In this document: piece by piece, positions 57,303 through 59,245 of the stretch
Layout: the number at the start of each line of letters is the position of its first letter
Numbering within the stretch: position 1 is the stretch's first letter
From: Escherichia coli
GTDB taxonomy: Bacteria; Pseudomonadota; Gammaproteobacteria; Enterobacterales; Enterobacteriaceae
Strand: one strand, 5' to 3'
Length of the DNA: 64,000 nucleotides
Assembly (NCBI RefSeq): GCF_003334385.1
Contig: NZ_QOWN01000004.1
The notes under the pieces: generated by a model
Databases searched by the model: none
What the model was told of the DNA's origin: nothing
The model's input: only the letters and a program-made list of their open reading frames with translations
Position numbers and translations under genes: made by a program

Positions 57303-59245
57303 CCTCCGGTATGTGCGCCGGGCATGGCGCGTAGCGCCGTGACTGGCGCTGTTCTTCAACTGTGGTGGCTGAAGAACGACTAAGAGGTGAAAGTCCTCCA
57401 CACACCCGGTGAGGGGAAGTGTTAGCGGAAGGCAAGGGTGTTCATCGCGAGGTGAAATCTGAAGGAAGCCGGATGCAAAATGCTGGCCTGACGAACAGGA
57501 AGCGGTTAAGGCGGCGCAGCGGGTAAGGTGGCATACATCACCAAAGCCCGATACTCACACGGAACGCTGTGACGTAGAGCCGACAGGCATAAGCAGGAAA
57601 GTCGCGCGAATTACCCCGGGAGATCTGCCGTCCTGCCAGTGTGCTACTGGCGTCGTAAGGTGCCGGGATGGGGCGGCAGAAGTCAGCCGACGCCGTAGTA
57701 GTGCTGCAAAACTGGCAGCATGCAGGGCCGAACATGATTAACCGTGATTAGGACATCCGAACCCGATGATGATTAATAAAGCATAAGCGCAGGCAACTGC
57801 GGCCAGCGGCAGAGGAGACGGACGGTATCCGTCAGGGCTGCATGATGGCGCTGAAATCAGCACGGCGGCGGGTGGGCAAACGAAAGCGGAAGTGCCGCTG
57901 ACGATGGAAGCGGTGATAACGAGAGAAAACCTGATGCTGGCTTATCAGCGCGTGGTGGAAAACAAAGGCGCGGCGGGGGTGGATAACCTCAGCGTGGCGG
58001 AGTTGAAACCGTGGCTGAAGAAGAACTGGCGCAGTGTCAGGCAGGCATTGATTGACGGAAACTACCAGCCGCGGGCAATACGCCGGATGGATATCCCGAA
58101 GCCGGATAGCGGCGTGAGAACCTCAGGCATCCCGACGGTGGTGGACAGGCTTATCCAGCAGGCGATAGCGCAGCAGTTAAGCGCCATCGTGGACAAAAGC
58201 TTCTCAGACTCCAGCTACGGCTTCCGGCCGAGGCGCAACGCATGGAAGGCGGTGCAACAGGCACAGCGTTACATACGGGGTGGCAAACGGTGGGTGGTGG
58301 ATATGGAGATATGGATCTGGAGAAGTTCTTCGACCTAGTGGATCACAGACCCCTGATGACGCGTCTGGCCAGAACGATAAAGGACAGGCGGGTGCTGAGA
58401 CTGATACGCCGCTACCTGAAAGCGGAAATGGTTAAAGACGGGCAAAGGGAGAAACGGCAGGCGGGCATGCCGCAGGGCGGCCCGCTGTCGCTGTTACTGT
58501 CGAACATCCTGCTGGATGAACTGGATAAAGAACTGGAGCGTCGTGGACACAGCTTCTGCCGCTACGCAGACGACTGCAACATCTACGTAAGCAGCCGGAA
58601 AGCGGGCGACCATCTGCTGAAGAACATCAGGGCGTTCGTGGAGAACAAACTGAAACTGAAGGTGAATGAGAAGAAGAGCGCGGTGGCGCGCCCGTGGGAG
58701 CGGAAGTTCCTCGGGTACAGTGTGACATGGCACAAACAGGCGAAGCTGAAAATAGCCCTGACGAGTGTGAACAGGCTGAAGGAGAAAGTCCGCAGTCTGA
58801 CCACGGGAAACCGGAGCAAATCAGTGAAAGTGACAATCAATGCCCTGACGCCAGTGCTGCGTGGATGGATAAGCTACTTCAGGCTGACGGAAGTCAGAGG
58901 AGTGCTGGAAGAGCTGGACGGCTGGATCAAACGGAAACTGCGGTGCCTGTTGTGGCGGCAGTGGAAGAGGCCGGGAACTCGGACGAAGAACCTGCTAAGA
59001 GTGGGGCTGAGTAAGGACAGGGCGATGATCTCAGCGTACAACAACCACGGGCCATGGTGGAACTCAGGGTCACGCCATATGAATCAGGCGATAAAGAATG
59101 CGTGGTTCAGCAGGCAGGGTCTGATATCACTGCTGGAACAGCAGAGGCAGTTCCAGTGTTAACATGAACCGCCGTATGCGGAGCCGCATGTACGGTGGTG
59201 TGAGAGGACGGCGGGAGTGATCCCGCCTCCTACTCGATCCAACAG
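57303..59245 (+). mobile_element. Bacterial group II intron, ~1.9 kb, with an inactivated intron-encoded protein
   Basis: Begins with GTGCG (57303), has a GC-rich structured domain I, an RT/maturase ORF in domain IV, and a domain V-like hairpin (GAGCCGCATGTACGG) at ~59180-59200; exact boundaries not determined. Confidence 0.65.
57904..59162 (+). pseudogene. Group II intron reverse transcriptase/maturase, frameshifted by an 8-bp tandem duplication
   Basis: RT motifs in two frames (NKGAAGVDN... then ...DLEKFFDLVDHRPLM...FCRYADDCNIYV with the YADD active site); the frames are joined at 58300-58315, where GATATGGA occurs twice in tandem. Confidence 0.75.

Follow-up and report, generated by a model that had tools for sequence, protein, structure and literature searches.

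The window is a 64,000-nt stretch of Escherichia coli DNA (RefSeq assembly GCF_003334385.1, contig NZ_QOWN01000004.1) that carries a group II intron of the E.c.I6 family at positions 57313-59238. The reverse transcriptase (RT)/maturase open reading frame (ORF) of the intron is interrupted by an 8-bp tandem duplication. The intron lies within a patch of insertion sequence (IS) remnants (IS21, IS3, and IS110) upstream of a LacI-family regulator and a phosphotransferase system (PTS) operon, and it disrupts no host gene. The best explanation, to which we assign a probability of about 0.93, is that this copy of the class C (IIC) group II intron E.c.I6 has been inherited vertically and is no longer functional. 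The intron, its parts, and the exon elements directly upstream are listed below, where EBS and IBS denote exon-binding and intron-binding sites and the labels beginning with L denote compared records.

57279-57303, plus strand: 9-bp hairpin, fold -14.9 kcal/mol, ending 9 nt before the splice site
57309-57312, plus strand: IBS1 (GUAU), the last four exon bases, complementary to EBS1 AUAC
57313-59238, plus strand: group IIC intron, E.c.I6 family (Rfam matches; end-to-end alignment at 98.5% with the intact copy L006)
57441-57609, plus strand: domain I core (RF02001, D1D4-3; 132.2 bits, gathering score 32)
57534-57537, plus strand: EBS1 (AUAC) in a domain I hairpin loop (loop CAUACA at 57532-57537), covarying with IBS1
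57644-57728, plus strand: RF01998 (group-II-D1D4-1) segment between domain I and the domain IV ORF (64.5 bits, gathering score 35)
57784-57786, plus strand: TAA stop, CAA in all five relatives, inside a 42-codon upstream extension that is coding in intact copies according to the NCBI Prokaryotic Genome Annotation Pipeline (PGAP)
57892-58338, plus strand: N-terminal piece of the RT ORF, RT0 to the start of RT3; likely start GTG 57892 or ATG 57904
58300-58315, plus strand: tandem duplication, two copies of GATATGGA; +8 nt frameshift, single copy in relatives
58308-59162, plus strand: C-terminal piece of the RT ORF in the shifted frame, RT3-RT7 including YADD, X/maturase, and C-terminal region
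59167-59238, plus strand: domains V and VI (D5/D6; RF00029, 48.5 bits, gathering score 40)
59168-59199, plus strand: domain V, 32 nt, CGC triad, shortened distal stem (RF00029 and fold)
59201-59236, plus strand: domain VI; the A at 59232, 7 nt before the intron end, is bulged as the branch point (fold)

The octamer GATATGGA is present in two tandem copies, at 58300-58307 and 58308-58315, and the RT frame is otherwise continuous, just as a preliminary description of this DNA had claimed. The additional 8 nt amount to a +2 frame shift, which that description placed just before DLEKFFD and which falls inside VVDM/DLEKFFD. The repeat splits the frame into two overlapping ORFs, 57892-58338 and 58242-59162, and the first ends at a premature stop (58336-58338) ahead of YADD, so the uninterrupted frame for an intron-encoded protein (IEP) that characterizes an active, autonomous intron is lost. 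In-silico removal of one copy of GATATGGA gives one frame of 420 aa (...RWVVDMDLEKFFD...), in line with the single RT ORF of about 420 aa that had been anticipated. The repaired protein scores 392.5 bits against NCBIfam TIGR04416, "group II intron reverse transcriptase/maturase" (cut-off 300), and contains the Pfam domains RVT_1 at residues 68-274 and GIIM at residues 290-367. A domain IV ORF with both RT and maturase X domains is thus obtained only once one repeat copy has been removed.

All five relatives compared at the matching position (L002, L005, L006, L007, and L010), which come from other E. coli replicons, hold one copy of GATATGGA. Since the other copies examined have a single octamer, the duplication is the derived state. 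Replication slippage would be its simplest origin. The RT/maturase frame is shifted after residue ~136 and would be translated only as far as the stop at 58338, short of both the catalytic YADD site and the maturase domain. Because translation ends there, the intron is predicted not to make its own protein, and neither self-mobilization nor efficient splicing would be expected of it. RefSeq/PGAP annotates the two RT halves as separate ordinary proteins, without a pseudogene call: WP_001375333.1 (57904-58338; 6655-7089 in L001, a record with the identical locus) and WP_001498758.1 (58356-59162; 7107-7913 in L001).

The intron begins with GTGCG at 57313 and ends with ...CUCGAU at 59238, which gives a length of 1926 bp, or 1918 bp without the duplication. 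The GTGCG start of the preliminary description is therefore present, but the limits it gave (57303-59245) are replaced by 57313-59238. Both termini agree with the GUGYG start and AY end of group II introns. The 3' boundary follows from three observations: all copies examined finish in ...CCUCCUACUCGAU / CTACTCGAT, with flanks that diverge beyond; the RF00029 model ends at 59238; and the branch-point A of domain VI lies at -7. The same boundary rule applied to the L005-type copy yields 1807 bp, equal to the published E.c.I6 of strain CFT073 (NC_004431:4320108-4321914). A 3' end at 59233, where BLAST matches to intron-free IS110 start, was considered and rejected: the TCG(T)AT similarity there is coincidental or IBS-related, whereas CTCGAT is common to all copies and the Rfam end and the branch-point A both indicate 59238.

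An Infernal search with group II intron models, which had been proposed as a check, returns three Rfam matches above their gathering scores, all on the plus strand (RF02001, RF01998, and RF00029). The last of these covers domains V and VI at 59167-59238; the preliminary description had named a domain V-like hairpin. The segment 59165-59238 folds at -43.8 kcal/mol (z = -6.8) into a 32-nt domain V and a domain VI with a single bulged A at 59232.

Class IIC introns differ from IIA and IIB introns in a domain V distal stem that is 2 bp shorter, a CGC in place of the AGC triad, and an 11-nt bulge with AGGAA (PMC1702495). In addition, IBS1 pairs with EBS1 over 3-4 bp, EBS2 is absent, and the splice site lies 3-11 nt past a terminator or another stem-loop (PMC1702495, Toor et al. 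2006). With the absence of EBS2 set aside, the window intron shows all of the traits of Toor et al. 2006. Its domain V is ACCGCCGUAUGCG-GAGC-CGCAUGUACGGUGGU, 32 nt with a CGC triad, and AUCUGAAGGAA, which is unpaired in the RF02001 alignment, constitutes an 11-nt stretch with AGGAA at 57463-57467. The pairing of EBS1 with IBS1 is borne out by a compensatory two-sided change, AUAC:GUAU in the window and ACAA:UUGU in L002, L008, and L009. In L005, a reference-type E.c.I6, the EBS1 loop ACUA (L005 2372-2377) is a poor match for the neighboring exon sequence UUAU, a departure from the other copies that presumably reflects decay after insertion.

In L002, L005, L006, and L007, a strong terminator hairpin (z from -3 to -7) and its T-run end a few nucleotides before the intron, and the window intron follows the 9-bp hairpin at 57279-57303. 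The IS110 site occupied by the plasmid copies L010 and L011 has only a weak 5-bp hairpin, 15 nt upstream. The endonuclease (En/HNH) domain is not among the Pfam matches of the repaired protein (RVT_1 and GIIM only), which is co-linear to its end with the RT of the IIC intron GsI-IIC; that enzyme is not known to have an En domain. The window intron is a bacterial class C (IIC) intron.

E.c.I6 is the name given in the Zimmerly group II intron database and used in PMC3522654 (Leclercq & Cordaux 2012), where the intron is listed as ORF class C with a length of 1807 bp and all four copies (CFT073, ED1a, APEC O1, and S88) have a disrupted ORF. Judged by its sequence, the window intron is a further copy of this named family: a known kind of element, from a known family, in the decayed state that is common for it. 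It is 95.7% identical in nucleotide sequence to the CFT073 copy (match H48) and 95.7-96.6% identical to the reference copies as a set, with which it shares the 5' GUGCG and 3' CUCGAU ends, the ORF class, and the disrupted ORF. The reference copies measure 1807 bp, have a 19-nt deletion at the 5' end together with internal deletions, and are found behind a terminator within a pathogenicity island, whereas the window copy is full length at 1926 bp, carries a different lesion (the 8-bp duplication), and is located in IS remnants beside the LacI/PTS operon.

Intact copies of the E.c.I6 type also exist. L006, from the chromosome of E. coli M9, has a length of 1919 bp, encodes a 462-aa LtrA (ltrA), starts right behind CCCCGGCAATGCCGGGGTTTTTTTT, and matches the window copy at 98.5% identity. 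Intact plasmid copies from E. coli and E. fergusonii (NZ_CP040454 and AP028812) are 99.6% identical to L006. The intact copies resemble the window copy at 98.5% over the whole intron and have the same domains V and VI, EBS1 AUAC, and IBS1 GUAU; they differ in an unbroken 462-aa ltrA and in their position right behind a canonical rho-independent terminator. Two other relatives were rejected as intact references. In L002, 14 residues of the RT0 motif are lost to an in-frame deletion of 42 bp, although the gene is still annotated as ltrA, and L007 is missing 29 residues through an 87-bp in-frame deletion. L005 and L010 are damaged in yet other ways, the former by the 19-nt 5' deletion plus internal ones and the latter by a +1 frameshift (TTCTTTTGACC).

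Beyond the family, the closest solved relative of the repaired protein is the GsI-IIC RT of Geobacillus stearothermophilus (PDB 6AR1), which aligns with residues 5-414 of 420 (E = 4e-134) across RT0-7, the X domain, and the C-terminal region. That enzyme is intact, unlike the window protein, which is frameshifted and altered at motif residues that the GsI-IIC RT and intact E.c.I6 have in common. B.h.I1 of Bacillus halodurans is the model IIC intron; it has in common with the window intron a short domain V with CGC, an AGGAA bulge, IBS1-EBS1 pairing over 3-4 bp, and, in place of IBS2, a stem-loop lying 3-11 nt ahead of the splice site (PMC1702495). The likeness to B.h.I1 is one of described features, as B.h.I1 belongs to another phylum, is only distantly related in sequence, and is active. 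Di.ze.I1 and So.gl.I1 from other Enterobacterales are likewise class C introns downstream of terminators with conserved IBS1/IBS3, but they are different introns in different hosts and are likened here by their published description (PMC3522654).

The duplication is accompanied by other damage. In the comparison with the five relatives, 14 substitutions are private to the window copy, and a helix of domain I lacks 1 nt (57520) in the window copy only. Several of the substitutions fall on residues that intact E.c.I6 shares with the GsI-IIC RT, among them those by which FRPGR becomes FRPRR (Gly to Arg, 58231) and GGPLSPLL becomes GGPLSLLL (Pro to Leu, 58492). Against L006 alone, further motif changes are PKPDGG to PKPDSG (58108), FFDRV to FFDLV (58336-7), and HRLL to HRPL (58351). 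The TAA at 57784-57786 falls within the 42-codon upstream extension, which may be dispensable because the GsI-IIC RT aligns only from Met 57904. The domain V loop GAGC (rather than GAAC) and bulge AU (rather than AC), in which the window copy differs from L002 and L005, were rejected as lesions, since intact L006 has the same domain V. Eight of the 14 private substitutions are C to T on the plus strand (57648, 57713, 57784, 58492, 58766, 58831, 58979, and 59002), which may reflect mutational bias in a decaying copy.

The duplication would be sufficient to inactivate the RT, because translation ends before YADD. The preliminary description had attributed the inactivation to the duplication, and it is right as to sufficiency but not as to a sole cause, given the 14 private substitutions and the 1-nt domain I deletion. 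The further private mutations suggest continued decay since the duplication, though any of these lesions may have come first.

A scan of 5426 complete E. coli genomes finds the duplication-bearing sequence in 170 at no less than 95% identity (168 at 99% or above); 167 genomes have the 5' junction and 170 the 3' junction, so that the locus is present in about 3% of complete E. coli genomes. Among the matches listed, all are chromosomal and in the same context: sigma-54 regulator, CaiB/BaiF, HMG-CoA lyase, MFS transporter, IS21 remnant, intron, IS110 remnant, LacI-family regulator, and PTS IIA/IIB/IIC. The locus is 99.7-100% identical among the ~170 carriers, and a duplication-free version of it was not found in the genomes scanned. 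Because every occurrence of the locus has the duplication, it arose before the carrier lineage diversified. The duplication is real and fixed in one lineage, and it serves as a clean lineage-specific marker for the ~170 genomes that share the locus. Other members of the intron family account for ~670 further records.

Active members of the E.c.I6 family are retroelements composed of a ribozyme and an RT, inserting a few nucleotides downstream of a stem-loop that is usually an intrinsic terminator. Target recognition involves 4 bp of EBS1/IBS1 pairing and 1 nt of EBS3/IBS3 pairing. Across Enterobacterales, mobile elements bring in group II introns, which rarely multiply and then degenerate where they are, with lesions that differ from copy to copy (PMC3522654). 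The window intron is one more example of this pattern, which is already known and ordinary, and as such it matters little.

Several points weigh against a dead, vertically inherited copy, and three other explanations were considered. Loss of the protein and of splicing activity is predicted from the sequence. The start codon of the IEP may be 57766, 57892, or 57904, which leaves the weight of the upstream TAA uncertain. Domains V and VI are the same as in intact L006, so the RNA could still splice with a related IEP supplied in trans. This last point opens the way to a non-autonomous rather than dead intron, in which a competent ribozyme is spliced or mobilized in trans by an intact E.c.I6 IEP encoded, for example, on a conjugative plasmid. 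Most of the remaining RNA is also identical to L006, near-identical intact copies circulate on E. coli and E. fergusonii plasmids, and the 5' exon retains the hairpin and a perfect IBS1. However, the deletion at 57520 breaks into a domain I helix, private substitutions are present in domains I-III, and no trace of new duplication-carrying insertions is seen in the ~170 genomes, each of which has the intron once and at the same place. A non-autonomous intron is accordingly judged unlikely, and inheritance of a non-functional copy is preferred.

The RefSeq annotation, in which each ORF piece is an ordinary protein and no pseudogene is called, likewise counts against the preferred reading and in favor of functional halves. 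The RT would then be rebuilt by a programmed frameshift, or the RT4-7/X piece would be retained as a stand-alone maturase; both pieces are open, and the locus is highly conserved among its carriers. Programmed frameshifting is rejected, since GGAGATATGGATC, as read from the sequence, contains no slippery heptamer and the relatives with intact ORFs are all without the duplication. The changes to FRPRR, SLLL, and FFDL affect residues that are invariant between E.c.I6 and the GsI-IIC RT, and the near-identity of the carriers follows from their recent shared ancestor and does not point to selection. Function of the two pieces is thus very improbable. It is harder still to credit that the repeat is a chance occurrence or an assembly or sequencing artefact rather than a mutation. 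The GATATGGA pair is the sole perfect 8+8 tandem duplication in the window, where 0.98 would be expected by chance, so its significance comes not from the count but from comparison with relatives: it breaks a conserved RT motif exactly where the five relatives hold one copy. The recurrence of the identical sequence in ~170 complete genomes, each assembled independently, speaks against a sequencing artefact.

The sequences on either side of the intron are remnants of different IS elements, as follows.

56669-57055, minus strand: N-terminal remnant of an IS21-family transposase (istA-like) gene; RefSeq annotates the identical locus in L001 as "IS21 family transposase, incomplete, missing C-terminus" (L001 5426-5746 = 56675-56995)
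57100-57239, no strand assigned: IS21-family terminal region with several GATGCGAA-N-GATCGA-type repeats; outer end at ~57237-57239, read from the sequence
57238-57312, minus strand: internal fragment of an IS3-family transposase orfA, 75 bp, antisense to the intron, forming the 5' exon; 98.7% identical to L003 2489-2563
59239-59561, minus strand: remnant of an IS110-family transposase gene, antisense to the intron, forming the 3' exon (RefSeq annotation in L001)

The matching stretch of L003 lies within an annotated IS3-family transposase pseudogene, on the opposite strand. The 75-bp IS3 fragment, which includes the hairpin and IBS1, separates the intron from the IS21-family end, so the two are not directly adjacent as had been supposed. 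The 5' and 3' flanks, when joined, are contiguous in none of the 5426 E. coli genomes, from which it follows that they never formed one target. E. coli O104:H4 (L004 2395-2586) has the same chromosomal IS110 remnant in a longer, intron-free form, ...GCGCTTTCGTAT/CCAACAGC..., and the plasmids pH22_122286 and pQ501 (L010 2661-4768 and L011) have an E.c.I6-type intron at exactly this site with IS110 on both sides, ...GCGCTTTTGTAT/intron/CCAATAGC.... On this comparison, with plasmid copies at the same IS110 site, the 3' junction is a genuine product of insertion. The 5' junction, which has the hairpin and a fully matching GUAU, looks genuine too.

The simplest account of the chimeric flanks would be homologous recombination between an IS3-resident and an IS110-remnant-resident copy of E.c.I6, with the intervening DNA deleted or replaced in the ancestor of the ~3% of sequenced E. 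coli that carry the locus; this account has an even chance of being right. The alternative is a microhomology-mediated (GTAT) deletion that ended by chance exactly at the intron boundary. The parental arrangement, with IS3 on both sides of the intron, would have the junction form ...CACCGCCTCCGGTAT/GTGCG... with ...CTCGAT/CCCGCTCATGC and was not found in E. coli genomes or PLSDB plasmids, and pairwise identities are uninformative on a crossover point (mosaic signal) within the intron; recombination is thus put forward as a deduction from the flanks. If it took place, the locus was remodeled with the intron serving as a portable site of recombination. The IS3/IS110 chimeric flanks would then be a modest and verifiable example of how an intron can mediate rearrangement in E. 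coli.

Elsewhere in the window, Rfam identifies three kinds of RNA feature, all on the plus strand. Ysr276 (Yersinia small RNA 276, antisense type) has a full-length match at 16358-16552 (175 bits) that is unrelated to the intron. Two copies of naRNA4 (CssrE, of the repetitive extragenic palindromic [REP]-element type) stand in tandem at 15353-15428 and 15449-15524, 20 nt apart, with scores of 78-82 bits. A tRNA match at 22525-22606 (59 bits) spans 82 nt against a 71-position model and is probably a tRNA with a long variable arm.

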